Below the pieces are notes generated by a model that saw nothing but the letters and a program-made list of their open reading frames with translations, had not been told where the DNA came from and ran no database searches. The position numbers and the translations under genes are program-made. A stretch of 32,000 bases of DNA from Alkalilimnicola ehrlichii MLHE-1 (GTDB taxonomy: Bacteria; Pseudomonadota; Gammaproteobacteria; Nitrococcales; Halorhodospiraceae): NCBI RefSeq assembly GCF_000014785.1, contig NC_008340.1, forward strand, positions 240,001 through 272,000, read 5' to 3'. How positions within the stretch are numbered: position 1 is the first letter of the stretch; each line of letters starts with the position of its first letter. Positions 3,952 through 32,000 of the stretch are shown here, piece after piece.

Positions 3952-4517
3952 CAGCGTTGTCTCCTGCCGCGCATCAGGTACCAGAGCAGCGCGGCGATGA
4001 GGATGGGTGTAAGGGCCAGCAGGGTCCAGGTGGCGGCCGCCTTGGAGGCGGGTGCGCCATGGGTTTCCGCCAGGTGGTCGGTAATCACCCGCCATTCCCC
4101 CGACTCCAGTTCGGCGCCGTAGGCCAGACGCATGCGCCAGACGGTGAAGGCCCAGCCCGGCCAGGTTCGTGCCTCGCGGTCGAAGTCGCCGGCATCGTGG
4201 CACTCCATGCAGCGGCGTTCGGTCAGGCGAACCGGGTAGGGGCGTGCGGCCAGTTCCGCCTCGCGGGCCTCCCGCTCGGCGCGCTCGGCCGCCTCGCGCT
4301 CACGCCGGCGTTCCTCCGCCGCCTGGCGTTCGCGTTCGATGGCCTCGCGACGAGCCTGCCGCTCCTCCTCGGTCATGCCCTCCTCGATGGGGTCGACCAT
4401 CAGCTCTTCCGCCGACATACCGGCGTGGCCGGGTAGGACGGGGAGGCCCATGGCGAGCAGCAGGCCGGTCAACCCGGCAATCAGGCGCCCATGGGTCCCG
4501 ACGGTTGGGTGCGGCAT
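3951..4517 (-). CDS. hypothetical exported/membrane-tethered protein with one CXXCH motif (putative monoheme c-type cytochrome)
   Basis: 188 aa. It has a signal-like N-terminus (RLIAGLTGLLLAMGLPVLPGHAG) and a highly charged E/R/A-rich helix. It also has CMECH, and a C-terminal TM (TWTLLALTPILIAALLWYLM) followed by RGRRQR. It lies 11 nt after the arxD stop. Confidence 0.5.
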   Translation of the reverse strand: MPHPTVGTHGRLIAGLTGLLLAMGLPVLPGHAGMSAEELMVDPIEEGMTEEERQARREAIERERQAAEERRREREAAERAEREAREAELAARPYPVRLTERRCMECHDAGDFDREARTWPGWAFTVWRMRLAYGAELESGEWRVITDHLAETHGAPASKAAATWTLLALTPILIAALLWYLMRGRRQR

Positions 4518-4528
4518 GATCGGCGCGT

Positions 4529-5431
4529 TCAGCGGCTCTTGACTTCCTTGAATTCGGGGTTGGTGTGCTGCATGCCCATGGCGCCGGCCCGGCAGTCGGG
4601 GCAGACGGCCAGGTGGCTGGCGTCCAGCCCTTTAGCCCGCAGGGTGGCCATCATCCCCGCGAGATCGCCGGAGGCGGCGAAGGGCTTGCCGCAGCGGGCG
4701 CACTCGGTCTGGTTGCCGGCGCTGCTGGCGGCCACGGCGGCGGAGGCCTCTGCCAGTTCGGGGGCGTCCTCTTGCGCTTCGGCCTCCGGGGCGGGCACCT
4801 GGGCCTGCAACCAGCGGGCGTCCTGGTCCAGGCTGTCGCGGACCAGGCGGGCCAGCAGCAGGTAGGGCGCGCCGTGGGGGGTGTCGCGGACCTCCTGTTC
4901 GAGCTTGCGTACCCAGTCGTTGGGCCAGGGGCGCAGGAAGCGGTTGAGGAAGTCGCGGGCCTCCTCCAGGTAGTGGGTGGCGGATTCGCCGTCCTCGGCC
5001 TGGCTGGCGGAGGCGAGCAGCAGGGCGAGGAACTGCAGTTGCAGGGCCAGGTGGTCGGGGGTGTCGCGGAAGCTGACGTCCCTGGCCAGGCCGTGGCGCT
5101 GGTAGTAGCCCTCCATCTCCACGACGCTGGGGCCCATCATGGCCTGATCGATGTAGAGGCCGGCGTTCAGGGGTGCCGGGTAGGGGGGCACCAGGAAGAG
5201 ACGGCTGTAGCCGCGCAGCAGGGTCTCGTGACTGTCGATCTGGCGCATGGCGTTGCGCAGTTGTTGCCCGGCGTCGGTGTCCGGGAGCAGTTCGTCCAGG
5301 TCCGCGGGCAGGGCCTCGCCCATGGCCTCGTGGTATTCGGCCTGCACCGGGGGGATGAAGGCCTGACCGAGGCAGAGGTAGAGCTCCGCGCGGGTCATCA
5401 GGTGCTCGGCGTGTTGTTGCAGGTTCGGCAT
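4529..5431 (-). CDS. arxD: TorD/DmsD-family redox enzyme maturation chaperone with a C-terminal CxxC...CxxC zinc-ribbon extension
   Basis: 300 aa. The core (AELYLCLGQAF, LLRGYSRLF, PDHLALQLQFLALL) is typical of the TorD/NarJ family. An extra tail of about 90 aa carries CARCGKPF...CPDCR. Confidence 0.8.
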   Translation of the reverse strand: MPNLQQHAEHLMTRAELYLCLGQAFIPPVQAEYHEAMGEALPADLDELLPDTDAGQQLRNAMRQIDSHETLLRGYSRLFLVPPYPAPLNAGLYIDQAMMGPSVVEMEGYYQRHGLARDVSFRDTPDHLALQLQFLALLLASASQAEDGESATHYLEEARDFLNRFLRPWPNDWVRKLEQEVRDTPHGAPYLLLARLVRDSLDQDARWLQAQVPAPEAEAQEDAPELAEASAAVAASSAGNQTECARCGKPFAASGDLAGMMATLRAKGLDASHLAVCPDCRAGAMGMQHTNPEFKEVKSR

Positions 5432-5504
5432 GGTGTTGTCTTGGCCTGATTCGTTGGTCTGGGGGGCGTAGACGCCATTTTAGACGTCCACGGCTTCGTT
5501 CGGG

Positions 5505-5719
5505 GGTTTTTGGAGAGGGCTGCCGGGGTGGCGGGTTATCGATTGAGGCTCCAGTTGCGCACCCCTTCGGGGTGCCCTGCGCTACTCGCCAAAAGGCGGC
5601 GGCGCGAACTCGCTTCGCTCGGACAGGCGCGCCTTTTTTCCGCCTTTTTGCTGCGTTGCTCGGTGCGCAAAGTCGCCTCAATCGATAACCCGCCACCCCG
5701 GCAGCCCTCTCCAAAAACC
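5505..5719. repeat. 215-bp palindromic (MITE/REP-like) element with perfect 45-bp terminal inverted repeats
   Basis: Positions 5505-5549 (ggtttttggagagggctgccggggtggcgggttatcgattgaggc) are the exact reverse complement of 5675-5719. The interior is also partly self-complementary (ttgcgcacc / ggtgcgcaa, and hairpin gcaccccttcggggtgc). Both strands give the same pseudo-ORF start, MERAAGVAGYRLR. Confidence 0.65.
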
Positions 5720-5772
5720 GGCAGGTGAAGGGGCGCCGGGGCCTCCCTGCCCCGGCTTTCCGTGCCCCTGCG

Positions 5773-6966
5773 TCAGGCCGTGGCCTTGGCCTCGGCCTCC
5801 GCTGCCTCCTCCAGTTGCTCCGGCACGGCGGAGAGGTTGAAGAACTTCTCGCCGAGCACGTAGAGCGTAAAGATCATGGCGGAGCCCATGATGGTCAGTG
5901 CCCACTCGGTGGCCGAGGGGGTGTACTGGATCATGTTCCAGGCCCAGGTGCCCTGGAACAGCGGGATGACCTGGCCGCCCACCACGAAGAAGTAGCGTTC
6001 GGCGAACAGGCCGCCAAAGGTCAGCACGGAGACCAGCACCTGTACCTGCGGGTTGACGCGCAGATTGCGCGACATCATGAGGGCGAACGGCACCAGCAGG
6101 CCCAACAGCAACGAGAGGATGTACACCGGCGAGGCGAACAGGTAGTCCGCCCAGACGTGGTAGACCTCCGGGTTGTTGGTGTACAGGCCGGTGATGGCAC
6201 GCACGGCCACGAACAGGATGGTCAGCCCCAGCACCGCGGCGAACAGTTTGGGCAGGCCGTTGTTCAGGGCGTTCTGCAGCTTCTGCGGCATCTTGCTGCG
6301 GTCGAAGCCGTAGGCCAGGTAGCTGAAGAACACCAGCGCGGCCATGCCGCTGGTCACGGCGGTGAGGTAGAAGTAGATGGGCAGCGAGCCGTCGAACCAG
6401 AACGGTCGCATGCTCATCATGCCGAAGATCAGCGCCAGGTTACCACTGGCCAGCAGCACGCCCAGGAAGGAGGCGATGCCGATGATCTTGGTGTTCTTGC
6501 TGTCCCAGTCGCCGGCCTCCATCTTCTGGAACTTCCAGAGCAGGAAGAGCAGGTCGGCGGCGTAGAACACACCCATCCAGAACATGGCGGACTGGATCTG
6601 CATGTTGAAGGGGATGGCCCACAGCATGCGGAAGGTGTGGCCCAGCTCCAGCGCCAGCACTGCCATACCGGAGATCAGGATGATGAAGGCCAGGAAGATG
6701 GCCCGCTTGGCGATGCCGTAGTACTGCTTGAAGCCGAACACCAGGGGCAGCGAGGCGATCAGGCCCAGCCCGGACGACGCCAGGGCGAAGTACAGGTAGG
6801 TGGAGATCGGCTGCCCCCAGGGCAACTTCGAACTGACGTTGAAGGCGGCGTGACCCACCGTGTTGAGCTGGAAGATCACGTAGCCGAAGGTCGCCACCAT
6901 CACGGCGGCGGAGAGTATCAGCAGGCCGGTGCCCAGCCCGCCCTTCATGACGTTGTTATCTGACAT
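5773..6966 (-). CDS. arxC: NrfD/PsrC-family polytopic membrane anchor (quinone-interacting subunit)
   Basis: 397 aa and very hydrophobic, with multiple TM helices. It follows the Fe-S subunit by 14 nt. Confidence 0.85.
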   Translation of the reverse strand: MSDNNVMKGGLGTGLLILSAAVMVATFGYVIFQLNTVGHAAFNVSSKLPWGQPISTYLYFALASSGLGLIASLPLVFGFKQYYGIAKRAIFLAFIILISGMAVLALELGHTFRMLWAIPFNMQIQSAMFWMGVFYAADLLFLLWKFQKMEAGDWDSKNTKIIGIASFLGVLLASGNLALIFGMMSMRPFWFDGSLPIYFYLTAVTSGMAALVFFSYLAYGFDRSKMPQKLQNALNNGLPKLFAAVLGLTILFVAVRAITGLYTNNPEVYHVWADYLFASPVYILSLLLGLLVPFALMMSRNLRVNPQVQVLVSVLTFGGLFAERYFFVVGGQVIPLFQGTWAWNMIQYTPSATEWALTIMGSAMIFTLYVLGEKFFNLSAVPEQLEEAAEAEAKATA

Positions 6967-6980
6967 GGTCGTTCACCCCC

Positions 6981-7730
6981 TCAGGAATTGCGCGGGCTGA
7001 AAGCGGGCACGCCGGCGCCGGCGCCCAGGTAGTAGACCTGCGGGCGGTTGCCCGTATGGTCCAGCAGCCGCACGCCGTGCTTGTCGCCGATGATGCGGTT
7101 GACGTTGGACTCCGGGTTGTCCAGGTCGCCGAAGTAGCGGGCCTTGGGTGGGCAGGTGCGCACACACGCCGGCACGTACTCGACCAGCTCCGGATCGTCC
7201 TCGTCCAGGTCGGGCACGCCCTCGGGGGCCTTGCTGACCTTGTGGTAGCAGAAGGTGCACTTGGAGACCACGCCCTTGGGCTGGATGCCGATGCCCCGGC
7301 GCCAGTCCTGCTCCGGGTTCTGGTAGGGCGGGCTCCACATCTGCCCGTTCTCGCCCGGGTAGACGTCGCGCATGTCCGGCTCGATGAGCGGCTGCTCGTC
7401 GGCGTAGAAACGCACGCCGTAGGGGCAGGCGATCATGCAGTATTTGCAGCCGATGCACTTGTTCCAGTCCACGAAGACGATGCCGCCGGCGTCCGGGTCC
7501 TTGTAGGTGGCCCGGGTCGGGCAGACGTGCACGCAGGACGGGTCCTCACACTGCATGCAGGGCCGCGGCAGCCACTTCATCTGGGCGCTCGGGTACTCGC
7601 CCTCGTTGTAGTACAGCACGTCCTGCCAGCTCTCGCCGGGCAGGGTGTTGTTCTCCATGGCACAAGCCGTGGTGCACGCTTGGCACCCGGTGCACTTGTC
7701 CAGGTCGATGACCATTCCCCACTTAGCCAT
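6981..7730 (-). CDS. arxB: 4Fe-4S ferredoxin-type electron-transfer subunit (DmsB/PsrB family)
   Basis: 249 aa. Begins MAKWGMVIDLDKCTGCQACTTAC, then CMQCEDPSCVHVCP, CIGCKYCMIACP and CTFC...CVRTCP. SD GGAGGA upstream. Confidence 0.9.
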   Translation of the reverse strand: MAKWGMVIDLDKCTGCQACTTACAMENNTLPGESWQDVLYYNEGEYPSAQMKWLPRPCMQCEDPSCVHVCPTRATYKDPDAGGIVFVDWNKCIGCKYCMIACPYGVRFYADEQPLIEPDMRDVYPGENGQMWSPPYQNPEQDWRRGIGIQPKGVVSKCTFCYHKVSKAPEGVPDLDEDDPELVEYVPACVRTCPPKARYFGDLDNPESNVNRIIGDKHGVRLLDHTGNRPQVYYLGAGAGVPAFSPRNS

Positions 7731-7755
7731 TATTCATGTCCTCCAGTTATCAGGC

Positions 7756-10269
7756 TCACGCCTTTTCCAGCCGCACCTTGGCGGTGTAGTAACAGGCGAG
7801 CCCGGAAATCGGGTCAGAGAGGTTCTCGGTGAGATCACCCGAGTGCCCTGGTTTCATGTCACGGCCCTGGGCGGTGGCCCAGCGGCCCTGGGCCCAGTGG
7901 CCGTACTCCATGGGCAGCACCAGGGTGTCCGGACGGTGCCCCGGCATGTAGCGGGCCACGGCGAGGATGGACTTGGTCTCGCCCCGTACCTGGGCGGAGA
8001 GGCGGACGGTGTCGCCGTCGTTGATGCCGCGCTCCTGGGCGGTCTTGGGGTGGATCTCCAGGTAACAGGTGCCCCGACCCCCGACAATGGGCTGCATATA
8101 GGCCTGGGCCTGCGGGATGTTGGCGCTGCGGCCCTCCGCGTGCAGCGGGGTCTTGGGGGTGACGAAGTGCAGGTCACCGTCGCCGGTGTGGCGGGGCTCC
8201 ACCCACTGGATGAGTCCGACCCGATCCTCGGCGATGCCCATCTCCCGGGCGATATAGTTGGCGTTGTTCTCCAGGAAACTGGACTTGAACTCGAACTTGC
8301 CGGAGGCCGTGGGCATGAGCTTGTCCTTGACCTCGTCCTCCGACATCTCGATGTTGTAGCCCTCGCCGTCCCACTCGTAGAAGGTGCCCCGCCAGTAGCG
8401 CCAGTGGTAGGGCTTCTTGTACCAGACGCCCTTCTCCTTCCAGCTCTCGAAGTCGTTGACGCCATTATCGCCCGGGTCGTTGGCGAAGCCGGCGGCGCGG
8501 TGGCGCAGCATGTTCTCCACATCACCCAACTCGCGGTAGTAGTCCGCCATCGGGCTGTTAATGCGCTTGCCGATCTCGATGATCATGTCGCCGAAGTGTT
8601 TGGTGTCGTACACCGGGTCCACGGCCGGGGTGCGCAGCGCGGCCATGGGCCAACCCTCGAACGGGTAGGTGGGCGAGTCCTGCAGCCGCTCCAGGTAGGT
8701 GTGCTCCGGCATGATGATGTCGGCGTACATGGCCGTCTCGCCGGGGTAGGGGGAGGTGTCGATGATGAAGACGTCCTTCAGTGCCTCCTCCCACAGGCGC
8801 GGGTCGGGCGCGGTCCAGATGGGGTTAGTGACGAAGAACATGGCCGTGTCCAGCTTGTAGGGGTCGCCGGCCAGGTGGTGCTTGGCGCACTCCTGCATCA
8901 TGGTGCCGGCCATCGGCCACTTCTCGGTGCCCGCCATGTCGATGCGCGGATGCTTGCCCTGCATCTCCCGGGCGTAGTCGTCCATGTAATCGTCGGCGCT
9001 CACCGGCAGCGGGCCGTAGGAGGGACCCATCTGGTAAAACAGCCCGCCCTCGGCGAACATGCTGCCCACCAGCGCGTTCAGCGCGTGCACCGCCATGCCA
9101 TTGTAGGTGCCGTTGAAGTGGGCGGTCGGCCCACGCTCCATGATGGCCATGGCCGGGCGGGTGGTCGCGAACTCCCGGGCCACGGTATAGATGTGCTTGG
9201 CCGGGATGGTGGTGATCTCCTCGGCCCACTCCGGGGTGCGGTCCTTCAGCTCCCCGTTCCACCATTCGGCCAGGCCGTGGGTCCAGTTGGCCTGGAAGGC
9301 GTCGGGAATGATGGTCTCGCCGGTGCGGAAGTGGTTGCGGCCGTCCTCGAAATCGCCGACGAACTCCTTGTCCCACAGGCCCTCGGTGAGGATGACATGG
9401 GCGATGGCCAGGGCCAGGGCGCCGTCGGTGCCCGGCTTGATCATCAGCGCGCGGTCCGAGGCCGCCATGGTGGGATTCATGCGCACATCAATGGTGGTTA
9501 CCCGGGTCTTGGGGCTCTTCGTGCGCATGTGGCCCCAAACCTGCATCAGGTAGTTGTAGGGGCGGAAGGCCTCCAGGAAGCCGGCGCCGAAGTTCAGGAT
9601 GTAGTTGGTGTTGCGGTAGTCGTAACTGTTGTAGGAGTCGTTGCCGTCAGTGGCGCGCTTGGCCCGCTTGGAGCCCTCGGCGCACATGGAGGCGTGGCCG
9701 ATGGCCGAGTTCGGGGTGCCGTAGAGCTTGCCGAAGTCGCCGTACAGGCCAGCATCGGAGGAGCCCCAGCCGCGACCGTAGAAGTGGGCAAAGCGATGGG
9801 ACTCGCCGCGCTCGCGCAGGCGGTTGAGCCGCTCGGCGACAATATCGAAGGCCTCGTCCCAGGAGATGGGCACGAACTCCGGGTCCTCGTCGCGGCCCTT
9901 GTTGGGGTTGGTGCGCTTCATCGGGCCCTTGAACCGGTCCGGGTCGTACAGCAACTGGGTGCCCAGGTGGCCCTTGGGGCAGAGCTTGCCGTTGGCGATG
10001 GGGTTGCCCGGGTCGCCGTAGATGGCGTGCACCCGTCCGTTGGTGGTGTAGACGTTGATGCCGCAGCGGGCCGGGCACTGGTGACAGATGTTCTTGGTCA
10101 CACGGGTCTCGCCGCCCGGCCGGGCATTGACATGGGTGGAGGTGGTGCTGGCGGCGGTGAAGCCGGCCAGCTTGCCCACCCCGGCGGTGGTCGCGGCCGC
10201 GGCGCCGGTGGCACCGGTGGCCTTGAGGAACCGCCGCCGGTTAAGCAGCGTATCCAGGATCATTTTCAT
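7756..10269 (-). CDS. arxA: Tat-exported bis-MGD molybdopterin oxidoreductase catalytic subunit, ArxA-type anaerobic arsenite oxidase
   Basis: 837 aa. Twin-arginine signal NRRRFLKATGATGAAAA. N-terminal CHQCPARC-X27-C (CX2CX3CX27C) Fe-S motif. YGRGWG at aa 164-169. Operon context arxB2/B/C/D plus divergent arxXSR. Confidence 0.8.
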   Translation of the reverse strand: MKMILDTLLNRRRFLKATGATGAAAATTAGVGKLAGFTAASTTSTHVNARPGGETRVTKNICHQCPARCGINVYTTNGRVHAIYGDPGNPIANGKLCPKGHLGTQLLYDPDRFKGPMKRTNPNKGRDEDPEFVPISWDEAFDIVAERLNRLRERGESHRFAHFYGRGWGSSDAGLYGDFGKLYGTPNSAIGHASMCAEGSKRAKRATDGNDSYNSYDYRNTNYILNFGAGFLEAFRPYNYLMQVWGHMRTKSPKTRVTTIDVRMNPTMAASDRALMIKPGTDGALALAIAHVILTEGLWDKEFVGDFEDGRNHFRTGETIIPDAFQANWTHGLAEWWNGELKDRTPEWAEEITTIPAKHIYTVAREFATTRPAMAIMERGPTAHFNGTYNGMAVHALNALVGSMFAEGGLFYQMGPSYGPLPVSADDYMDDYAREMQGKHPRIDMAGTEKWPMAGTMMQECAKHHLAGDPYKLDTAMFFVTNPIWTAPDPRLWEEALKDVFIIDTSPYPGETAMYADIIMPEHTYLERLQDSPTYPFEGWPMAALRTPAVDPVYDTKHFGDMIIEIGKRINSPMADYYRELGDVENMLRHRAAGFANDPGDNGVNDFESWKEKGVWYKKPYHWRYWRGTFYEWDGEGYNIEMSEDEVKDKLMPTASGKFEFKSSFLENNANYIAREMGIAEDRVGLIQWVEPRHTGDGDLHFVTPKTPLHAEGRSANIPQAQAYMQPIVGGRGTCYLEIHPKTAQERGINDGDTVRLSAQVRGETKSILAVARYMPGHRPDTLVLPMEYGHWAQGRWATAQGRDMKPGHSGDLTENLSDPISGLACYYTAKVRLEKA

Positions 10270-11552
10270 CGCCTTGTATCCTCCTGATCATCGTGATCCC
10301 CGGGTTGGGTGCCCGGGTCTTGTGCGGGGCCCGCGGCCCCGGAGCTTGAGCCTGCCCCGAAGAGCAGGTCGCGGCCCGAATCCTGGGCCAGTGCGGCATC
10401 CTTGCGGCAGCCGGGACAGAGCGTGTGCTCCTTCCCCGCGGTGAACGTGGTGTGACAGCGCTGGCAACGCTGCCGGTGGTGTCGGGTGGCCGGGACGCGT
10501 CCCACATAGGGGTGGCCGTCGCGTTCCGTTATGGTGATGGCCTTTTCCGGGCAGACCTGTTGACACAGGCCGCAACGGATGCAGAAGAGCGGGTCGTAGT
10601 CCAGCCCGCTGCCGTCCTCGTCCTCCACCGGTTGCAGGGCGCCGGTGGGGCAGAGCGCCGCGCAGATACGGTGGTTGCAGCAGGCGTCGGAGATCTTCGC
10701 CTGCGGAAAGAGGGTGTTGGGCAGGCTCTGGTCCTGGGCCACCGCCAGGGCCGCCAGGGCCTCCACCCGGCGAAGGCGCGGTGCGGGCTGAACCCGGCCC
10801 GAGACCATCGGCACTGCGGCCGGCGCGGCCGGGCCGGTGCCCTGGATCTGTTCCGCGGCCCCGGCCGCGTGGCCGGCCAGCCGACGGAACAGCCCCCGGC
10901 GGCTGACCCGTGTCTCCCCGCCGGGTGTGGGGGTCTCCCGGCGGTACAGGTGGGCGGGTAGCGGGGCCTTCCGCAGGCTGGGGCTGCGCCCGGTAAGCCC
11001 CAGTGAGGCCAGGGCCTCGCGGCACTCGGTCAGGGCCTGATCCACCGGCGGGCGCCGGCAGTCGGCGGCGGCCGGGCAGTCGGCGCACCAGCCCCGGTCG
11101 AGCAGTTCCACCGGACGCTCGCCGCACTCCTGCACCAGTCGCAGCAGGCGATCGCTGCCCAGGCCCCCCAGGCAGGGCACCCGCAGGGCGCCTTCCGGGG
11201 ACTGCTCCGGCGGCACCCGCCAACAATCCACGGCCAGCGGTGCGGTGGCCTGGTCATCGCCGGGGTGGCTGTCCAGCCCGGCGCCGTTGATCGCCCCGGT
11301 CGGGCAGGCCGCGGTGCAGCGGCCGCAGGCGACGCAGTCGCCGGTCAGTTGCGGGCCTTTCGGCGTGGCGGTCAGGGCATCCACCGGGCAGGCCTGGCTG
11401 CAGGCACGGCAATCGGACAGGGGCGAGCGCGCCGGCAGGCAGGCGTTCTCCTGCCACAGCAACCAGGGCTGGGCATCGCTCAGGCGATGCCAGGCCGACT
11501 GTTCGGCGGACTCTGACAAGCGGCTTCTCCTCCACACCCCGGCCCGGTTCAT
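10266..11552 (-). CDS. arxB2: cytoplasmic multi-[4Fe-4S] protein (ArxB2 / ArxB-prime) with a C-terminal zinc-ribbon and acidic tail
   Basis: 428 aa with no Tat or Sec signal. Cys clusters: CRACSQACP, CVACGRCTAACP, CCNHRICAALCP, CIRCGLCQQVCP. The tail carries CQRCHTTF...CPGCR. ATGA overlap with the arxA start. Confidence 0.72.
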   Translation of the reverse strand: MNRAGVWRRSRLSESAEQSAWHRLSDAQPWLLWQENACLPARSPLSDCRACSQACPVDALTATPKGPQLTGDCVACGRCTAACPTGAINGAGLDSHPGDDQATAPLAVDCWRVPPEQSPEGALRVPCLGGLGSDRLLRLVQECGERPVELLDRGWCADCPAAADCRRPPVDQALTECREALASLGLTGRSPSLRKAPLPAHLYRRETPTPGGETRVSRRGLFRRLAGHAAGAAEQIQGTGPAAPAAVPMVSGRVQPAPRLRRVEALAALAVAQDQSLPNTLFPQAKISDACCNHRICAALCPTGALQPVEDEDGSGLDYDPLFCIRCGLCQQVCPEKAITITERDGHPYVGRVPATRHHRQRCQRCHTTFTAGKEHTLCPGCRKDAALAQDSGRDLLFGAGSSSGAAGPAQDPGTQPGDHDDQEDTRR

Positions 11553-11787: not shown

Positions 11788-12687
11788 ATGGCCCGTTGGT
11801 TCGGTTCCGTATGGTTGGCGCTGTTGGTGGCGTCGACACCCGCGGCGATCGCCGCAGAGCACGCTGCAGAGCAATCGCAGCCCCTGCGTATCGGCCTGAC
11901 GCCGGTGATCCTGGAGGATCAATTGAGCTTCCTGGACGAGTGGCAGACCTACCTGGAGCGGCGCACCGGCCGGGAGGTGCAATTCGTGCGCCGTAACAGC
12001 TACGGTGAGGTGGTGGAGCTGGCTCTGCGGGGCCGGATCGACTTCGCATGGCTTTGCGGCTACCCCTACGTCCAGCATGACACCCGATTGGGTCTGCTGG
12101 CGGTCCCGCGGTTCAACGGGGCGCCCCTCTACCAGGCCTATTTAATCGTGCCGGCCAATGACCAGGCGACCGAATCCATCAAGGACCTGGCCGGCCGGGT
12201 ATTTGCTTACTCCGATCCCAATTCCAACTCCGGCTGGCTCTACGGCCAGCAGTTGCTGGACGAGGCCGGCGTCATGGACCCGGAGCGCTTCTTCCTGCGC
12301 ACCTTCTTCACCTTCAGCCACCGCAAGGTGGTGGAGGCGGTGGCGGAGCGCGTGGCCCATGGTGGCCTCGTGGATGGCTACGTCTGGGAGACGCTGGCGC
12401 TGGACCGGCCCGACCTCACCGGGCGGACCCGGGTCGTGCATCGCTCCGAGCCGTTTGGCTTTCCGCCGCTGGTGGCTTCTCCCGGCACCACCGAGGGCGA
12501 ACGCCGGGCGCTGCAAGAGGCCCTGTTCGGTATGGATGAGGACCAGCGCGGACGGGAGTTGCTGGAGCGCTTGAACCTGGAGCGGTTCGAGGCCGGGGAT
12601 GAGTCGCTCTACGACGGTATCCGCGATCTCAAGCGCCTGGTGGATGTGGGCCGGCTGCCGGAGCCGCCGGACGGCTACGAGCGATGA
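11788..12687 (+). CDS. arxX: periplasmic PhnD-like substrate-binding protein (arsenite-sensing partner of the two-component system)
   Basis: 299 aa. Sec signal MARWFGSVWLALLVASTPAAIAAE. PhnD-type fold signature (IDFAWLCGYPYV, SNSGWLY). ATGA-coupled to the kinase gene. Confidence 0.75.
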   Translation: MARWFGSVWLALLVASTPAAIAAEHAAEQSQPLRIGLTPVILEDQLSFLDEWQTYLERRTGREVQFVRRNSYGEVVELALRGRIDFAWLCGYPYVQHDTRLGLLAVPRFNGAPLYQAYLIVPANDQATESIKDLAGRVFAYSDPNSNSGWLYGQQLLDEAGVMDPERFFLRTFFTFSHRKVVEAVAERVAHGGLVDGYVWETLALDRPDLTGRTRVVHRSEPFGFPPLVASPGTTEGERRALQEALFGMDEDQRGRELLERLNLERFEAGDESLYDGIRDLKRLVDVGRLPEPPDGYER

Positions 12688-14150
12688 TCGAGAACATCAG
12701 CTACCGCTACAAGGTGCCGCTGAACATCACCCTGGTGGTGGTGCTGACCGCGGCGGTGATCTCGCTGACGGTGTTGGGGCAGGCCTGGCGCGATCTGGAG
12801 CGGGACCTTTACCAGAACGGCCAGAGCCTGGCCCGGGTGCTGGCCCATGGGGTCGCCCCGGCGCTGTTGCAGGAGGACGTCTGGGGGGCCTACGAGACCA
12901 TCCGGACCCCCATGGCGGTGGACATGGAGCCCCACCTGCGCCCGGAGAGCATCATGGTGCTGGACGAGCACCACCGGATCTATGTCTCCACCGATCCGGA
13001 CCGCCTGCCAATCCTCGCCCGCCCCGCCGAGGCGGACCCCGATCTGGCTCCTCTGGGGCGGTTACTGGCCGGGGAGGGGATCAGTGGCCCGGAGCGGCTG
13101 CAGTTGGCGGGCAACGAGTTCCTGGTGCTGTTGCCGGTGGAGATGGATGGCAGCGTGCTGGGTACGGTGGTGCTGGGCTATTCGCGCGCCGGGTTTCTGC
13201 CCCGTTTTCTCGGGGCGATGCAACAGGTGTTGGTCACCACGTTCCTGATCCTGCTGGTGCTGGTGCCGGCCGGATGGTGGCTGGGCCGGCGGGTGGCCGA
13301 GCCGCTGCTGGCGCTGTCCGCCTGTATGGATAAGCTCGGCAGCGGCTCCGCGGAGCGGCTGGGCTGCCAACTGCGGCGTACCGGCGACGATGAGATCGGA
13401 CGGCTCAATCGCCAATTCCACGCCCTCATTGAGGAGTTGCAGGAGAAAGAGGCCCTGGAGCGGGAGATGGTGCGGGCCGACCGGCTGGCGGCCATCGGCC
13501 GGCTGACCTCCGGGATCGCCCACGAGATCAACAACCCGCTTGGCGGCATGCTCAACGCACTCAACACCTATAAACATCATGGGGCGCCGGACCCCTTCAC
13601 CCTCAAGACCCTGTCGCTGGTGGAGCGCGGTCTGCTGCAGATCCGCGATATCGTCGGCGCTCTGCTGGTGGAGACCCGGCTTAAGGGGGAGGACCTCTGG
13701 GCGGAGGACCTGGAGGATGTGCGTACACTGCTGGCGCCGGACATTCGCCGAAAGCAGGTGAACCTGGACTGGGACAACCGGCTTCAGGGGCCGGTGCCCC
13801 TGCCGGCGACCCCGGTGCGTCAGGTGCTCATCAACCTGCTGCTCAACGCGGTGCGCGCGGCGCAACAGCGTGGTCGGGTCGATTGCCGGCTGGAGCGTGT
13901 CGACGGCTGGTTGCTGATCACCGTCTGGAACGACGGCGACCACATACCCGCCGAGCGCATGGATCACCTGTTCGAGCCCTTCTCCGGTGCCAGTGCCGTG
14001 GGCAACGGCCTGGGCTTGTGGGTAACCTATCAGATCATTGAGCAGCTAAGTGGGCGTATTGAAGTGGAGAGTCGACCCGACGACACCCGATTCGTCGTCC
14101 AGTTGCCGCTGGAGGCCCGTGAGGCCGAGCTGCGGGAGGCGCTGTCATGA
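12684..14150 (+). CDS. arxS: sensor histidine kinase (2 TM, HAMP, HisKA, HATPase_c)
   Basis: 488 aa. H-box SGIAHEINNPLGGM, N-box LINLLLNAVRAA, G-box GNGLGLWVTYQII. Confidence 0.85.
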   Translation: MIENISYRYKVPLNITLVVVLTAAVISLTVLGQAWRDLERDLYQNGQSLARVLAHGVAPALLQEDVWGAYETIRTPMAVDMEPHLRPESIMVLDEHHRIYVSTDPDRLPILARPAEADPDLAPLGRLLAGEGISGPERLQLAGNEFLVLLPVEMDGSVLGTVVLGYSRAGFLPRFLGAMQQVLVTTFLILLVLVPAGWWLGRRVAEPLLALSACMDKLGSGSAERLGCQLRRTGDDEIGRLNRQFHALIEELQEKEALEREMVRADRLAAIGRLTSGIAHEINNPLGGMLNALNTYKHHGAPDPFTLKTLSLVERGLLQIRDIVGALLVETRLKGEDLWAEDLEDVRTLLAPDIRRKQVNLDWDNRLQGPVPLPATPVRQVLINLLLNAVRAAQQRGRVDCRLERVDGWLLITVWNDGDHIPAERMDHLFEPFSGASAVGNGLGLWVTYQIIEQLSGRIEVESRPDDTRFVVQLPLEAREAELREALS

Positions 14151-15481
14151 GCGCTCGCCTGTGTCTCATCGAGGACGATCCCATCATGGGTGAGTCCCTG
14201 CAGGATCGCTTCACCCTGGAGGGGTTTCAGGTGGACTGGTTCGTGACCGCGGCACAGGCCCGGGAGCACCTGCGGGGCGGGGGATACGCGGCGGCCATCA
14301 GTGACATCCGGCTGCCCGACCAGGAGGGGGATGCCCTTTACCTGTCCTTGAAACGCGACGGCCAGGTGCTCCCCCCGTTTATCTTCATCACCGGCCACGG
14401 TGCCATCGAGACGGCGGTCCAGCTATTGAAGGAGGGGGCTGCGGATTACGTTACCAAACCCTTTGACCTGGATGAGCTGGTCACCAAGGTGCGCGGGCTG
14501 GCGGAGGCTCAGGGGGGAGACGCCCCGGCCGAGGAGGGCGAGCCCCTGCTTGGGATTGCACCGGCCATGCGGCGGCTTGAGGAGCGTCTGCGCCGCCTCG
14601 CCCGCGCCGGGGCCGGCGTGCTGATCACCGGTGAGTCCGGTGTCGGGAAGGAGCACGCCGCGCGCCTGCTCCACCAGGCCGGTGCCGGCGACGGTGAGCG
14701 CCCCTTCGTGGCGGTGAACTGCGGTGCGTTGACCGAGAGCCTGCTGGAGGCCGAGCTGTTTGGTCATGAACGAGGCGCTTTCACCGGCGCGGCCCGGGCG
14801 CGGCGCGGCGTGTTCGAGCAGGCTCAGGGGGGGACCCTGTTTCTGGACGAGATCGGCGATATGTCGCCGGCGATGCAGGTGCGTCTGCTGCGCGCGATTC
14901 AGGAACGCTGCATCACCCGGGTCGGTGGCGAGACGCCCATCCCCGTGGATATCCACCTGGTGTCCGCCACCCACCGCGACCTGCGTGCCCTGGTGGAGTC
15001 CGGTGAATTCCGCGAGGACCTCTACTACCGCATCAACACCGTGCAGGTGCGCATCCCGCCGCTGCGCGAACGGCCCGAGGATATCCTCTGGTTCGCCGCC
15101 CGCTTCCTCGCCGAGGCGGCTGCCGAGCAGGGACGGGAGGATCTGCAGGGGCTGTCCGGTCAGGCCCAGGAGGCGCTGCTGGAGCACCACTGGCCCGGCA
15201 ATCTGCGTGAGCTGCGCCATGCCATCGATCGGGCGGTCATCCTCGCCGAGGGGCCGCAGGTCACCCCGGCGGATCTGTTTGACGACCGGGATGAGCCGGG
15301 CCTGCCCGATGAGGCGGGCCAGGGGCTGACCGATTACCTGCGTCGTTGCGAACGGGCCCATATCGTGCAGGCGCTGGAGGCCCACGGCGGGCATATGGCC
15401 CGGACCGCCGCCAGCCTGGGGATCAGCCGCAAGAACCTTTGGGAGAAGATGAAGAAGCTCGGGGTGAAGGCGCCCGGATAG
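14147..15481 (+). CDS. arxR: sigma54-dependent NtrC/Fis-family response regulator
   Basis: 444 aa. Receiver domain (AAISDIRLPD), Walker A GESGVGKE, GAFTGA motif, C-terminal HTH AASLGISRKNLWEKMKKLG. Confidence 0.9.
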   Translation: MSARLCLIEDDPIMGESLQDRFTLEGFQVDWFVTAAQAREHLRGGGYAAAISDIRLPDQEGDALYLSLKRDGQVLPPFIFITGHGAIETAVQLLKEGAADYVTKPFDLDELVTKVRGLAEAQGGDAPAEEGEPLLGIAPAMRRLEERLRRLARAGAGVLITGESGVGKEHAARLLHQAGAGDGERPFVAVNCGALTESLLEAELFGHERGAFTGAARARRGVFEQAQGGTLFLDEIGDMSPAMQVRLLRAIQERCITRVGGETPIPVDIHLVSATHRDLRALVESGEFREDLYYRINTVQVRIPPLRERPEDILWFAARFLAEAAAEQGREDLQGLSGQAQEALLEHHWPGNLRELRHAIDRAVILAEGPQVTPADLFDDRDEPGLPDEAGQGLTDYLRRCERAHIVQALEAHGGHMARTAASLGISRKNLWEKMKKLGVKAPG

Positions 15482-27141: not shown

Positions 27142-27813
27142 TTAACGCCCCTCCTGGAAGGCCTCCTGCTCCAGCTTCATGAATTCCACCAGGGCGGCCA
27201 GCTCCTCCGAGTCCCAGTCCAAGGGCTCGGCGGCCATGGGTGAGACCATGCAGATCTGCACCATCTCGTCCAAGTGCACCTCGTTGAGGCCGAAATCCCG
27301 CTGGGCCATCTCCACGTGGTGGGGAAAGGGTTGGGCGAAGGTATCGGCATAACCGGCACCCTCCATGTGGCAACTGGCGCAGGCCAGGTTGTTGGTGGAC
27401 AGCTCCCGGTTATAGAACAGGTCCTCGCCCAGGGCGGCCAGTGCCTCAGGGTCGCCCTCGAAGGGCTGATAATCGGCGGGTCGTGTCACGGCGTCGCGCA
27501 GTGCCTCCCCGGCCTCGGCCTCTCCTTCGCCCTCTGCCTCGGCTTCACCCTCGGCCTCGGCTTCACCCTCGGCCTCACCCTCGGCTTCGGCTTCGGCTTC
27601 GCCCTCTGCGCGGGCCTCGGCTTCCGCCTCGCCCTCTGCGACGGGGATAAGGTACGCGGCACTGGGTGATGAGCCAGGCTCAACCGGTTGCGCGGCCATC
27701 ACGCCGGCCGAACTGTAGGCGGCCAATGCGATCAGCGGGGCCGAGGCAATGGCCCCGTAAGACAAGTTTCGAAGCAGGCGTTGTCGCTTGGCGTCGTTCT
27801 GCTCCATTTTCAT
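27142..27813 (-). CDS. exported monoheme cytochrome c (CCP/MauG-like heme domain) with N-terminal leader and poly(GEAE) acidic linker
   Basis: Start at MKMEQNDAKRQRLL (ATG 27813, SD GAGGAGGA; the track start at 27840 is TTG). It has LGEDLFYNRELSTNNLACASCH, and 46 aa of E/A/G repeat. 223 aa. Confidence 0.7.
   Translation of the reverse strand: MKMEQNDAKRQRLLRNLSYGAIASAPLIALAAYSSAGVMAAQPVEPGSSPSAAYLIPVAEGEAEAEARAEGEAEAEAEGEAEGEAEAEGEAEAEGEGEAEAGEALRDAVTRPADYQPFEGDPEALAALGEDLFYNRELSTNNLACASCHMEGAGYADTFAQPFPHHVEMAQRDFGLNEVHLDEMVQICMVSPMAAEPLDWDSEELAALVEFMKLEQEAFQEGR
27502..27639 (-). repeat. in-frame degenerate tandem repeat encoding (G/A)-E-A-E units
   Basis: Encodes AEGEAEAEARAEGEAEAEAEGEAEGEAEAEGEAEAEGEGEAEAGEA. 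It includes an exact 18-bp duplication, ggcttcaccctcggcctc x2. Synonymous codons otherwise vary. Confidence 0.8.
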
Positions 27814-29553: not shown

Positions 29554-30135
29554 TCAACCGGCGGCGGCGTGAGCGGTGGTCCGTTCGCCGGCCCGCCAGT
29601 AACGCAGGGTCGACGGTGCCACCCCGAACGCCTCATCGGTCCGCAGACCGGCCTGCTCCGCCAGCATGGCGATCAGGGCCATGTGGTGGACCGTGTGGCT
29701 GAGCAGAAACATCAGTTCCCGCTGCAGGCTGGACGGAGTCCAGGTCCGTTGCGGGCCCGCCGACGTGTCGCAGACACAGGCGACCTGTACCGGGGTGTCC
29801 GGTGGCAGCGGGCCGATCTCCCGAGCCAGCCGATCGTCGAGTTCGGCCAACGCACGGAGGGCTTGCTCCGGGTCCTGCTCCAGGGCCTGATCGCGGGCCC
29901 GGCTGTCGTAATCCATTGCCCCCCAGGCGCCGGCGAGCAGGGACTGGACATGCTCCAGGATATGCCGGACCTGCCGCCCGATGCCGTTGCCGCCGTAAGG
30001 CCCGCTGCAAGCCCGGTAGCGCGCGGTGTCCAGGTCGCCGACCAGGTTGGCCAGTTGCCGGAGAAAATGGCGGTTATCGTCCACCAGGCTGACGGTGACG
30101 GGATGACCGTTCCTACATGCTTGTTGATACCCCAT
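29554..30135 (-). CDS. DinB-fold (DinB_2-like) metal-dependent protein
   Basis: Start at MGYQQACRNG (ATG 30135; the track start at 30189 is TTG). His triad candidates RHILEHV and LSHTVHHMA. 193 aa. Confidence 0.65.
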   Translation of the reverse strand: MGYQQACRNGHPVTVSLVDDNRHFLRQLANLVGDLDTARYRACSGPYGGNGIGRQVRHILEHVQSLLAGAWGAMDYDSRARDQALEQDPEQALRALAELDDRLAREIGPLPPDTPVQVACVCDTSAGPQRTWTPSSLQRELMFLLSHTVHHMALIAMLAEQAGLRTDEAFGVAPSTLRYWRAGERTTAHAAAG

Positions 30136-30283: not shown

Positions 30284-30595
30284 TCAGTAGCCGCCCTCAC
30301 CCTCGGCCTCGCCTTCCGCTTCTCCTTCGGCCTCACCTTCCGCCTCACCTTCCGCTTCGCCCTCGGCCTCGGCCTCCGCCTCACCGGCGGCTTCCGCCTC
30401 GCCGACCGCGGCCTCGGCTTCGCCCTCGCCCTCCGCGGCGGCCATCATCTGATAGCCGCTATCGGCCACCGCGTCCGACATGACGGCGTGAATGCCGGCG
30501 CCACCGCCGACAATCGCCAGAACGGGGACGGTGTAGGCGACACTGCGCGACAAGGTGCGCAGCAGTTGCTGACGGACTGTCTTTTCCTCACTCAT
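30284..30595 (-). CDS. small exported poly(Gly-Glu-Ala-Glu) protein, paralogous to the N-terminal part of the cytochrome at 27142..27813
   Basis: Start at MSEEKTVRQQLLRTLSRSVAYTVPVLAIVGGGAG (ATG 30595, SD AGGAGG). The C-terminal 51 aa are almost only G/E/A and end in GGY. 103 aa. Confidence 0.6.
   Translation of the reverse strand: MSEEKTVRQQLLRTLSRSVAYTVPVLAIVGGGAGIHAVMSDAVADSGYQMMAAAEGEGEAEAAVGEAEAAGEAEAEAEGEAEGEAEGEAEGEAEGEAEGEGGY
30290..30442 (-). repeat. in-frame degenerate 12-bp tandem repeat encoding (GEAE)n
   Basis: Encodes AAAEGEGEAEAAVGEAEAAGEAEAEAEGEAEGEAEGEAEGEAEGEAEGEGG. Confidence 0.8.
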
Positions 30596-30694: not shown

Positions 30695-31120
30695 TCACGC
30701 ATCGTTTCCTTTTGCTAACAAGTAAAGGGCCACGAATAGCAGGCTGACCTGGAACATCATGCCGCCCATCGGGTGGGTCGCCGTTGGCAGAAAGTGCCAC
30801 TGGCCCCAATGCGCCATGAAAATAGCGCCCAGAAGGACCGGCACGGTGGCCAGCGCACCCAGCCGCGTCACCCAGCCGTTGGTGAAGGCACCTACAACCA
30901 CCAGGATGCCGGCGCTGATCTCCGCCAGCGCCACCAGCAGTGCGATGACCAGGGGGAGACCCATCATCTCCGCCCAGGGGCCGATGCCCGCGCCCAGGAA
31001 TTTGTCGACACCCATGTAGGTGAAGACAGAGAAGATCACCGCCCGGAGTAACCAATGGGCATGGCGCTCCACCGTCTGCAGTTCTGTGTTGGCCGTCGAA
31101 ATTCCGGTTGTCATAAGCAT
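30695..31120 (-). CDS. DoxX family membrane protein
   Basis: Start at MLMTTGIST (ATG 31120, SD GAGGGTGG). 141 aa with 4 TM helices. GVDKFLG is typical of DoxX. Confidence 0.8.
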   Translation of the reverse strand: MLMTTGISTANTELQTVERHAHWLLRAVIFSVFTYMGVDKFLGAGIGPWAEMMGLPLVIALLVALAEISAGILVVVGAFTNGWVTRLGALATVPVLLGAIFMAHWGQWHFLPTATHPMGGMMFQVSLLFVALYLLAKGNDA

Positions 31121-31169
31121 CTGTTGCCACCCTCTGTTGTTGGCTAAGAAAACGCTGAAGGGCCGCCTT

Positions 31170-31249
31170 TCGTCATTGCGATTGCCGCGACGTGTTGCCC
31201 GTAGTGGGGCGAATGGATTGCTTCGTCGCTTCGCTCCTCGCAATGACGA
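31170..31249. repeat. hairpin-forming repeat containing the widespread cgtcattgcga / tcgcaatgacg motif
   Basis: A 12-bp perfect inverted repeat, tcgtcattgcga (31170-31181) / tcgcaatgacga (31238-31249). The interior ggattgcttcgtcgcttcgctcctcgcaatgacg translates to the pseudo-peptide DCFVASLLAMT. Confidence 0.4.
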
Positions 31250-31349
31250 GGTGTGGGAGCCCTTAACGTCCGATCCTTGATGCCTACAATAGAGGTGTGG
31301 GTCAGCGCCCGGTATCCGTAATAACACGCACTGCCGGGTGCACGGTTAA

Positions 31350-32000
31350 CTAGTTCGCTACTTTCTCCTTCCTCCCTTCCGGGTTGATCTCGCGCAGAAC
31401 GTCGTTCGCCGCACGGAGGGCGAGGTAGAGGTCGTCCCGATGCCCCACTGCGTAGACGGGTCGACCGGCCACCCAGTCGGCAAACTGTGACAGCGTTCGG
31501 CCATCCAGCCCGGTACCATCGTGGCGGGCCGTCTCCGGCAGCAGGTGGCCCAAGGCCTCGCGCAGGCCCAGCTGGCGGGCGATGCCCTGATCCCCGCTCG
31601 CGTCGTCGGGGGCGGCAATAAGGATCGCGGCCACCTCAACGGCATCGCGCGCCGGCGTGCCGGTCGCCGGCACCAGGTGGCCACGCTGGCCGAACCACCA
31701 AAGATGGGCAGTGGCGTCCGGCCCGTCGGGCTTTTCACCGGGCCGTGGGGTTGGCGCCGGCGTCGATGATCGTGGCTGGCGGAGCGGCAGCCCGAGGGAG
31801 CGGGCCCGGCCGCTGCCTTCCAGCGCAATGGCCGCGCCGCCGCTGGCGGTCTGGCCGTTCTCCCGGGCCAGGGCGAGGGCCAGGGCATCATCGCCGGTTG
31901 TATCGCCGCGGCAGACCAGCAGGGCGGCACCGGGATGGGACGGGCCGGCCGGGACCAGGGCGCCGGTGATCGCAATCTCCCCGACGTCGGGGGTGCGCCG
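31350..32000 (-). CDS. hypothetical protein, C-terminal 216 aa (ORF open to the right edge)
   Basis: The frame of track ORF 31350..31673 (whose start is really an internal GTG) stays open up to 32000. It reads RRTPDVGEIAITGALVPAGPSHPGAALLVCRGDTTGDDALALALARENGQ...HLWWFGQRGHLVPATG. Third positions are G/C-rich. No family recognised. Confidence 0.5.
   Translation of the reverse strand, partial: RRTPDVGEIAITGALVPAGPSHPGAALLVCRGDTTGDDALALALARENGQTASGGAAIALEGSGRARSLGLPLRQPRSSTPAPTPRPGEKPDGPDATAHLWWFGQRGHLVPATGTPARDAVEVAAILIAAPDDASGDQGIARQLGLREALGHLLPETARHDGTGLDGRTLSQFADWVAGRPVYAVGHRDDLYLALRAANDVLREINPEGRKEKVAN

Follow-up and report, generated by a model that had tools for sequence, protein, structure and literature searches.

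A candidate leader-guided TTLL-type ligase and two paralogous glutamate-rich modules, one of them fused to a cytochrome c, in Alkalilimnicola ehrlichii

Background

To our knowledge, members of the family of tubulin tyrosine ligase (TTL) and TTL-like (TTLL) enzymes are known almost only as eukaryotic modifiers of tubulin. The present work concerns a stretch of 32,000 nucleotides from Alkalilimnicola ehrlichii MLHE-1 (contig NC_008340.1, positions 240,001 to 272,000; G+C content ~68%), hereafter called the window, which encodes a free-standing protein of 103 aa (the small protein) and a cytochrome c whose N-terminal part resembles it, both with a leader followed by a tract of Gly, Glu and Ala (G/E/A tract), as well as the C-terminal part of a TTL-family enzyme of 829 aa (Table 1). 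We propose that the two leader-and-repeat modules may be leader-guided substrates of this putative TTLL-type ligase, and that their Glu residues would be branched in the cytoplasm before export by the Sec pathway, as in the tails of tubulin; gene linkage and the analogy to known enzymes make us lean towards this reading, if only modestly.

PMC3495828, citing Iyer et al. 2009, mentions a bacterial origin of the TTL/TTLL family, proposed from sequence analysis. The searchable literature yielded neither a description of a bacterial system composed of TTL, PqqD and Glu repeats nor a native substrate or role of a bacterial TTL or TTLL enzyme. A 'bacterial TTL' is reportedly mentioned in a Legionella longbeachae genome paper, the only such mention that we found. 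In TTLL6, K174 binds the α-phosphate of ATP, and K283 and K377, invariant in glutamylases, hold the γ-carboxylate of the donor glutamate. The residues C179, Q180 and H362 of TTLL6 specify α-linked elongation, whereas initiases, which create the isopeptide bond on an internal glutamate, have A, R and I at these positions, and a triple mutant of these residues turns TTLL6 into an initiase (bioRxiv 10.1101/2020.06.07.139295). Among bacterial systems, the bufferins are peptides made by ribosomes and modified post-translationally (RiPPs), with Sec signal peptides, a partner protein that contains a RiPP recognition element (RRE), an optional DoxX gene and control by extracytoplasmic function (ECF) sigma factors (PMC11626156).

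Results and discussion

Two paralogous modules of leader and glutamate-rich repeat

The small protein and the front end of the cytochrome (~104 residues) are true paralogous precursor-type modules, as the original prediction for this region, made from the letters of the window, had claimed for leader and repeat together. Local alignment of the two parts that precede the repeats gave a score of 52, against 21.1 ± 3.9 for shuffled sequences (z = 8), and none of 2000 shuffles reached 52. A profile hidden Markov model (HMM) built from 90 leaders of other genomes matched only these two open reading frames (ORFs) of the window (E-value 2.8e-14 for the small protein and 7.1e-8 for the cytochrome), the best other ORF having an E-value of 0.055; the paralogy was not shown by BLASTP comparison of the two proteins with composition adjustment (E-values 0.044 and 75). 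The two leader strings had been assigned in swapped order: the one starting with KRQRLL belongs to the cytochrome, the one starting with VRQQLL to the small protein.

A search for the leader in other genomes had been proposed as a check, and the family was found in many of them. A phmmer search with the small protein against 1.84 billion representative proteins reported 46 matches, mostly full-length to proteins of 57-119 aa, among them three members of the cytochrome family aligned over their first ~100 residues. Since a search started from the small protein thus retrieves the N-termini of cytochromes, the two modules are linked independently of the comparison within the window. Relatives of the cytochrome, at least 86 in number, occur in Marinobacter, Halomonas, Vreelandella, Halovibrio and metagenomes, and all 18 that were retrieved share the layout of leader, spacer, (GEAE)n tract and heme domain. 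A profile of 40 leader segments gave no match at E-value ≤ 1 against 5.8 billion proteins, being too short for a database of this size, and the NCBIfam and Pfam scans of the small protein returned nothing meaningful. The same small protein was found without any change on 5 independent contigs, including two complete chromosomes of 3.2 Mb. A cytochrome-domain homolog from Halomonas salifodinae (L084:13991-14653) carries an ordinary signal peptide and a Cys/Pro-rich (AANPC)n repeat instead of the leader and the (GEAE)n tract.

The consensus of the leader according to the 90-leader HMM is xxDx(K/Q)R(R/Q)xLLx(K/R)L(S/A)R(G)LxY(T/S)xP, in which R, LL, L, S, R, Y and P carry the most information; the most informative columns belong to the N-region and to the invariant Pro. 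Conservation is higher in the N-region than in the hydrophobic core, an uncommon pattern for a mere signal peptide. In all clades the hydrophobic segment is followed by AxA-like sites, and inspection of both proteins of the window and of their orthologs revealed Sec-type features (a positively charged n-region, a hydrophobic h-region, which is rather long, and a small-x-small site), in agreement with the export signal with AxA-like sites suggested originally. At the border of spacer and repeat, a 'GYxM(x)A' or 'LMLAEAH' junction recurs in the orthologs of the small protein, and '(G)LIPSAEAAQ' or 'LMLA' is kept in those of the cytochrome.

The tracts consist of 21 Glu, 17 Ala, 12 Gly and 1 Val in the small protein and of 21 Glu, 16 Ala, 8 Gly and 1 Arg in the cytochrome, and an independent tract finder returned exactly the boundaries that had been reported for them (Table 1). 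The six consecutive GEAE units described for the small protein hold in the AEGE register, whereas the strict GEAE run has 5 units. At the DNA level, the tracts had been said to use different synonymous codons and to share only about 14 nt of identity; the sharing is indeed low, with the longest exact common run being 16 nt, against 18.3 ± 3.2 nt for random synonymous back-translation, and the longest internal direct repeats of the two tracts measure 14 and 23 nt. As the sharing does not exceed that of random synonymous coding and the internal repeats are short, the repetition is maintained at the level of the protein; neither slippage nor gene conversion accounts for it, in line with the original view that neither has been recently at work. 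The suggestion that general halophile composition accounts for a part of the signal fails: in all six frames of the window there is no third G/E/A tract (≥80% G/E/A, ≥25% Glu, 20 residues), and therefore halophile composition is no explanation for the tracts.

Among the orthologs, the length of the tract varies from 13 to 76 residues in the small proteins and from 25 to 109 in the cytochromes; the tract thus varies in length but stays in frame throughout. The ORFs of the small proteins terminate directly after the tract. A C-terminal GY is limited to some members of the Ectothiorhodospiraceae-type clade, and the endings in the other clades are EAEG or EAEA. Many loci (L097-L101, L029, L042, L043, L050, L083, L096) contain tandem pairs of small leader-and-repeat paralogs, whose repeats come in different flavors: (GEAE)n, (GE)n, (EASPEA)n and (GEANPE)n. 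This makes for a plastic repeat unit, which still has a Glu every 2-4 residues. Being Glu-rich and of low complexity, the tracts are presumably disordered, like the tails of tubulin.

A TTL-family enzyme with a PqqD-type domain

The gene of the enzyme runs beyond the end of the window and is found complete in a public assembly (L002:4757-7246; the window position equals 38596 minus the L002 position). Its product has 100% identity to the protein of A. ehrlichii MLHE-1 named 'PqqD family peptide modification chaperone' by NCBI; many database entries call the enzyme 'amylase', which looks like an annotation error. Pfam profiles identify a TTL domain (PF03133, residues 64-345, E-value 7.7e-56, 189.9 bits against a cutoff of 20.1) and a PqqD domain (PF05402, residues 438-502, 31.6 bits against a cutoff of 23.4), of which the latter falls below the cutoff in many homologs; the RRE also matches the HvfC/BufC RRE model weakly (E-value 0.033). 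The closest solved sequences are the tubulin polyglutamylases TTLL6 (E-value 1e-37) and TTLL7 (3.5e-32), with the glycylase TTLL3 (9e-13) and TTL (4.5e-9) far behind. The AlphaFold2 model (pLDDT 89.7, pTM 0.87) displays a TTLL core, an RRE and a C-terminal α/β domain, with the three-strand and three-helix topology of an RRE in residues 421-498, and in Foldseek searches with this model every top match was TTLL6 (E-value 3e-27, TM-score 0.82), with TTLL11, TTLL7 and TTL coming next.

K137, D300, E313 and N315 are invariant in 87 homologs. K137 aligns with K174 of TTLL6, and the other three stand at positions that probably bind Mg2+, by analogy with ATP-grasp enzymes in general. At the positions of C179, Q180 and H362 of TTLL6, sequence alignment of the family shows A/S142, R143 (82/87; K in the remaining 5) and L316 (87/87), a signature that would point to ligation onto the γ-carboxylates of internal Glu residues. 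K337 (87/87) probably corresponds to K377 of TTLL6, according to a hand alignment beyond the end of the HMMER alignment. No export signal was identified in the enzyme. Its ~300 C-terminal residues (~522-829) lack a Pfam annotation and were not characterized by the Foldseek search with the whole model; when modeled alone (pLDDT 86.8), they gave weak matches to phosphoenolpyruvate (PEP) carboxykinase and HPr kinase (E-value about 1e-3). By-eye comparison with the HprK motif suggests a P-loop with GDD for GKS, and hence apparently without the Walker-A Lys. This domain is probably a non-catalytic HprK-like module, perhaps a pseudo-kinase fused to the RRE.

Linkage of the enzyme to the modules

A genome scan with the enzyme alignment gave 80 loci, to which the counts of linkage add L002 and L005; the enzyme is held by 81 loci. 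The gammaproteobacterial ones belong to Ectothiorhodospiraceae, Aquisalimonas, Natronospira, Marinobacter, Halomonadaceae, Oleiphilaceae and Competibacteraceae, the alphaproteobacterial ones to Robiginitomaculum, Parvularculaceae, Marinicaulis, Algimonas and Geminicoccaceae. An ORF matching the leader HMM is present in 80/81 of these loci, with two or three such ORFs in 37 of them. The HMM matches 120 of the 9168 six-frame ORFs of the enzyme loci, of which 116 have a G/E/A tract and the other 4 are cut by contig ends or runs of N, and every matching ORF encodes either a small protein or a cytochrome. The median distance between the leader ORF and the enzyme gene is 164 bp; in Halomonas GFAJ-1 the enzyme lies 3.5 kb from the cytochrome.

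The linkage holds in the opposite direction of search as well: a scan of metagenomes with the leader pattern only revealed 10 loci, and all 8 whose flanks were usable carry the enzyme together with DoxX and DinB. The alphaproteobacterial loci of Robiginitomaculum, Parvularculaceae and Marinicaulis contain only the enzyme and a divergently transcribed leader-and-repeat cytochrome. Clustering of all neighbor ORFs of the enzyme loci revealed no other universal partner gene. The modules described originally are real, while the adjacent TTL-family ligase with its PqqD-type element, linked to them in 80/81 loci, had been overlooked; the repeat is likely to be an acceptor tract for post-translational ligation of amino acids rather than a passive polyanion. 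The roles suggested for it (periplasmic cation binding, a tether, a spacer for the heme domain) may still apply as downstream functions.

Proposed mechanism

The mechanism that we propose would start from a module made up of a conserved leader, with its hydrophobic segment and AxA-like site, of a short spacer and of a (GEAE)n or (GE)n tract with ~40% Glu, and from a linked enzyme with an apparently intact TTL/TTLL-type ATP-grasp active site, a PqqD-type RRE and no export signal. The RRE may bind the N-region of the leader in the cytoplasm and thereby offer the Glu tract to the ATP-grasp domain. The enzyme would then activate the γ-carboxylates of internal Glu residues and join an amino acid to them by an isopeptide bond, comparable to the branch 'initiation' by TTLL4/5/7 on tubulin, as the active-site signature suggests. 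Ligation onto internal Glu residues fits the internal position of the tract in the cytochromes. An external amine donor would be needed, because nucleophilic side chains are lacking from the core, in which G, E and A are the only residues; glutamate would be the default donor according to the nearest homologs, and a different donor is quite possible given the invariant Phe in the donor site (see below).

Since the enzyme depends on ATP and lacks an export signal, its substrates must be modified, if at all, before they are exported. A cytochrome c must reach the periplasm for the attachment of its heme, so that the leader must double as an export signal; it would next act as a Sec signal and be cleaved by signal peptidase. 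The products would be a free, modified, polyanionic peptide in the periplasm and a SoxA/CCP-like cytochrome c (CCP, cytochrome c peroxidase) with a modified N-terminal tail. We speculate that the modified tails could bind cations or metals in the periplasm, or serve in docking of partners, in an envelope redox or stress response.

The cytochrome domain and the gene neighborhood

The heme domain passes the cutoff of PF21342 (SoxA/TsdA; 30.5 bits against 27; motif ACASCH) and that of PF03150 (di-heme peroxidase; 30.4 bits against 25.6), the latter match covering only profile positions 2-39 of 149. A second heme-binding domain, as in di-heme cytochrome c peroxidase, MauG or MbnH, is absent from the protein, which has a single CxxCH. 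The best solved relative is SoxA (1h31), and the Cys of the MVQxCMxxPM motif aligns with the chain residue Cys114, which we take to be a heme ligand in that structure. Conservation of the CxxCH and of the Cys motif is at least 95% across 49 cytochromes, and the heme is probably ligated by His and Cys.

According to public assemblies, the genes on the minus strand are ordered as follows: the 829-aa enzyme, DoxX, the small protein, the DinB-like protein, the membrane protein with a flavin mononucleotide (FMN) glutamate-synthase-like domain and the cytochrome (Table 1).

Table 1. Features of the window and of the proteins discussed in the text
Feature	Position	Strand	Remarks
Small protein, 103 aa	30284-30595	-	AGGAGG Shine-Dalgarno sequence 5 nt 5' of ATG
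Small-protein leader, residues 1-37	30485-30595	-	N-region VRQQLLRTLSR, hydrophobic segment with invariant Pro, IHA AxA-like site; matches leader HMM
Small-protein spacer VMSDAVADSGYQMM, residues 38-51	30443-30484	-	Conserved Tyr, then short hydrophobic patch abutting the repeat
Small-protein G/E/A tract, residues 52-102	30290-30442	-	51 residues, 21 Glu; proposed acceptor tract
Small-protein C-terminal Tyr codon and stop	30284-30289	-	Protein ends in GEGGY
Cytochrome c, 223 aa, monoheme	27142-27813	-	GGAGG Shine-Dalgarno sequence 6 nt 5' of ATG
Cytochrome leader, residues 1-40	27694-27813	-	Starts KRQRLLRNLSY, VMA site; paralogous to small-protein leader
Cytochrome spacer, residues 41-58	27640-27693	-	Contains Tyr; ends AAYLIPV
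Cytochrome G/E/A tract, residues 59-104	27502-27639	-	46 residues, 21 Glu; internal, with leader on one side and heme domain on the other
Cytochrome heme domain, residues 105-223, and stop	27142-27501	-	Single CxxCH, SoxA/TsdA or CCP-MauG N-terminal type, MVQxCMxxPM motif
TTL ATP-grasp/PqqD-RRE/HprK-PEPCK-like enzyme, 829 aa, 3' end (216 codons and stop)	31350-32000	-	Start ~1.8 kb beyond the end of the window
DoxX-family membrane protein (139 aa in the calls of public assemblies)	30695-31114	-	Pfam DoxX, E-value 2e-8; accessory gene in clusters of Ectothiorhodospiraceae type
DinB_2-superfamily protein, 193 aa, cytoplasmic	29554-30135	-	Pfam DinB_2, E-value 6e-6; companion gene, conserved
Membrane-anchored FMN glutamate-synthase-domain protein, 553 aa	27857-29518	-	Pfam Glu_synthase PF01645, E-value 7.5e-86; accessory gene, found occasionally

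The doxX gene lies directly upstream of the small gene in 13 enzyme-anchored loci and in Ectothiorhodospiraceae-type loci that were fetched later. In a sister A. ehrlichii assembly (GCA_049200435.1; L001:5936-7901, corresponding to positions 30695-31327 of the window), doxX is split by an IS3-type element, composed of a 107-aa orfA and a 300-aa orfB with an integrase core on the opposite strand, and the other five genes of the cluster are intact. The split doxX is a natural knockout and has a parallel in the bufferin operons, in which DoxX is dispensable. A leader protein with a (PEAx)n tail is encoded on the metagenome contigs L088, L089 and L102 (gene L102:10001-10318), amid housekeeping genes.

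The DinB-like gene occurs in 56 enzyme loci, directly 3' of the small gene, and a sequence search of the PDB with its product identified no informative solved relative. The gene of the FMN glutamate-synthase-domain protein adjoins that of the enzyme in about a dozen loci, from Marinobacter and others (including L010, L011, L018, L023, L036-L038 and L098); that it lies so near a putative glutamate ligase is intriguing. At distances of up to 7 kb from the enzyme gene, an ECF sigma factor is encoded in 32/81 loci, an AhpD-like carboxymuconolactone decarboxylase (CMD) in 23 and rhodaneses in 19, and a zf-HC2 anti-sigma factor in 19 loci with a Halomonas query and in 15 with a Marinobacter query. 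The matches to the ECF sigma and anti-sigma factors span the Marinobacter and Halomonas groups of loci, and the queries for sigma factor, anti-sigma factor, CMD and rhodanese gave no match in L002, the counterpart of the cluster region of the window. These recurrent neighbors suggest stress-responsive regulation and, together with DoxX, hint at a possible role in envelope redox or stress processes.

Two further associations were considered and rejected. A link to zinc was abandoned, as cobW is found near the cluster only in A. ehrlichii and Halomonas GFAJ-1 and recurs in no other locus, and a link to arx arsenite oxidase likewise, as the Marinobacter, Halomonas and alphaproteobacterial loci have no arx-like families among their recurrent neighbors. 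The window itself contains (positions 3951-11552 on the minus strand and 12684-15481 on the plus strand) a molybdopterin oxidoreductase cluster, genes of a sensor kinase and of a sigma-54 response regulator, and further on genes of NnrS and of a DUF255 thioredoxin-like protein. The oxidoreductase cluster encodes a catalytic subunit of 837 aa, Fe-S subunits, a membrane subunit of the NrfD type, a chaperone resembling NarJ and a heme-binding protein of 188 aa; it is consistent with an arx locus for arsenite oxidation and unrelated to the TTL system.

Evidence against the proposed function and alternative explanations

Several observations weigh against the function proposed above. The relation of enzyme and substrate is drawn from gene linkage and analogy, and the proposal would require the passage of a branched polypeptide through SecYEG. 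Within the active site, the position of TTLL6 K283 aligns with F240, invariant in 87/87 homologs (the flanking helix is ungapped in this alignment, but HMMER placed the gap differently for TTLL7), and because of this Phe an assignment as a classic glutamylase is not supported; a Lys also aligns with R241, a donor-binding residue considered 'invariant'. Neither a leader protease nor a dedicated exporter is conserved across the enzyme loci, and the conserved DinB-like gene is left unaccounted for. Recognition of the leader by the RRE is not to be assumed either, since the signal peptide of bufferins is dispensable for their modification (PMC11626156). Finally, one lineage has a leader protein that is clearly homologous, has a (PEAx)n tail and follows doxX with no TTL-family gene within 10 kb, so that the leader and the small protein can exist without an adjacent ligase.

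Such a solitary leader protein would be expected if the modules were unmodified periplasmic polyanions, with the leader as a shared Sec signal, the tract as a cation buffer or an acidic spacer of the heme domain, and the TTL-like enzyme acting elsewhere or only as a regulator or chaperone. This explanation, in essence the original one, which we regard as unlikely though by no means far-fetched, agrees with the extreme acidity of the tract before any modification, with the restriction of the family to halophilic, alkaliphilic and marine bacteria, and with the incomplete donor-binding signature of the putative glutamylase. It is difficult to reconcile with the near-obligate linkage of the modules to an RRE-bearing ligase, seen in both directions of search, and with the minimal pair of enzyme and repeat cytochrome in alphaproteobacteria; besides, the N-region of the leader is conserved beyond the needs of a signal peptide, and an RRE fused to a ligase would be purposeless without a peptide substrate, for which no other conserved candidate gene exists. 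The persistence of the DoxX-small protein pair without TTL could also be taken to mean that the leader is an uncleaved membrane anchor, which docks the enzyme (via the RRE) or DoxX, and that the small protein is a structural subunit of a DoxX-centered redox complex. The position of the small gene, always directly after doxX in the Ectothiorhodospiraceae-type loci, and the hydrophobic stretch of ~20 residues, long for a signal peptide, speak for such an arrangement; nonetheless we find it quite improbable, for Marinobacter, Halomonas and alphaproteobacteria possess the modules and the enzyme with no doxX in the cluster, the insertion in the sister assembly disrupts doxX and leaves the rest of the cluster intact, AxA-like sites follow the hydrophobic segment in every clade, and the conservation of the Glu tract would be left unexplained.

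The proposed branching of internal Glu residues has also to be compared with a reaction at the C-terminus, in which the ligase would extend or cap a free end, like TTL, TTLL11 and RimK, or would attach the small protein to a target via its C-terminus in a Pup-like manner. The small proteins always end exactly where the tract ends, that of the window ends in Tyr like α-tubulin, and the related ATP-grasp enzymes TTLL11 and RimK are described as working on α-carboxyl ends. However, a terminal Tyr occurs in a single clade only, the Arg at the position of Q180 is a signature of isopeptide formation on internal Glu, and in the cytochrome, the sole candidate substrate in alphaproteobacteria, the tract is internal and followed by a domain of 120 residues, so that we consider C-terminal chemistry very unlikely indeed. 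As to the notion that the small ORF is non-coding, slippage-prone repeat DNA or a chance ORF of low complexity, which its composition and the lack of a significant pairwise BLASTP match after composition correction might suggest, the comparative data in practice refute it: strong Shine-Dalgarno sites and a conserved leader, more than 100 in-frame orthologs with tracts of variable length, synonymous scrambling of the repeat, and the identity of the protein on the 5 independent contigs.

Significance

The reading as leader-guided substrates of a TTLL-type ligase leads to a broader proposition, to which we give even chances: the locus may represent a bacterial counterpart, and possibly an ancestor, of the chemistry of the 'tubulin code', with an RRE-targeted TTLL-type ligase that branches Glu residues of tubulin-tail-like repeats in exported proteins. 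If so, these proteins would be the first native prokaryotic substrates of TTLL enzymes and the founders of a new RiPP-like class, the products of which include a branched tail on a c-type cytochrome, an unusual instance of such modification on a redox protein. Leader-guided peptide modification would gain a new ATP-grasp clade and a new type of reaction (intermolecular ligation of an amino acid onto Glu), and the rare group of Sec-exported modified peptides would be extended. The locus is a small and tractable candidate pair of linked enzyme and substrate (a protein of ~100 aa and one enzyme), and its presence in cultivable strains of Marinobacter, Halomonas and Alkalilimnicola makes the origin and the bacterial role of TTLL chemistry directly testable.

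Comparison with known systems

The HprK/PEPCK-fold domain next to a PqqD-type RRE, in a context of peptide modification, recalls the PqqD and HPr-kinase-like precursor kinases of lasso peptides, from which the present enzyme differs by a weak fold match (Foldseek E-value about 1e-3), the apparent loss of the Walker-A Lys and the absence of a lasso cyclase. The cytochrome resembles SoxA/TsdA and the N-terminal domains of CCP and MauG, as it passes the PF21342 cutoff, possesses the GxxLFxDxxLSxxxxxSCxSCH motif of di-heme peroxidases and aligns its Cys with Cys114 of SoxA, but it has one heme domain and no second heme, no SoxX partner nearby, and a unique leader and repeat at the N-terminus. RimK, which acts on ribosomal protein S6, is likewise a bacterial ATP-grasp enzyme that adds amino acids post-translationally to an acidic protein end; it belongs to a different ATP-grasp family and extends the C-terminal α-carboxylate of one cytoplasmic protein, without RRE or leader. 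Graspetides of the microviridin type share the leader-guided action of an ATP-grasp enzyme on carboxylate side chains of a ribosomal precursor, here proposed for the TTL clade, whereas theirs are other ATP-grasp clades, which link Asp/Glu to Ser/Thr/Lys within the molecule as lactone or lactam rings; no Ser, Thr or Lys ring partners are found in the present tracts.

Bufferins and HvfA have in common with the present system the precursors with Sec-type signal peptides in place of classical leaders, the RRE protein, the optional doxX, the nearby ECF sigma and anti-sigma factors and, as we propose here, modification in the cytoplasm with a periplasmic product. The differences are that the cluster has no MNIO (DUF692) or DUF2063 gene and the small protein no Cys, that ATP-grasp ligation on Glu is proposed in place of thiooxazole formation, and that one of the putative precursors is a full cytochrome. 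The closest likeness in the enzyme is that to the glutamylases TTLL4/5/6/7, with which it shares the fold and the Pfam TTL family, the conserved ATP/Mg2+ positions and the 'initiase' signature of Arg and an aliphatic residue at the positions of Q180 and H362; the presumed bacterial substrates, too, are Glu-rich tracts whose sequences resemble the tails of tubulin. It departs from them in the apparent replacement of K283 by an invariant Phe and of R241 by Lys, in its bacterial origin, in its proposed targeting by a fused PqqD-type RRE and a leader instead of a microtubule-binding domain, and in its candidate substrates, which are exported proteins and include a c-type cytochrome.

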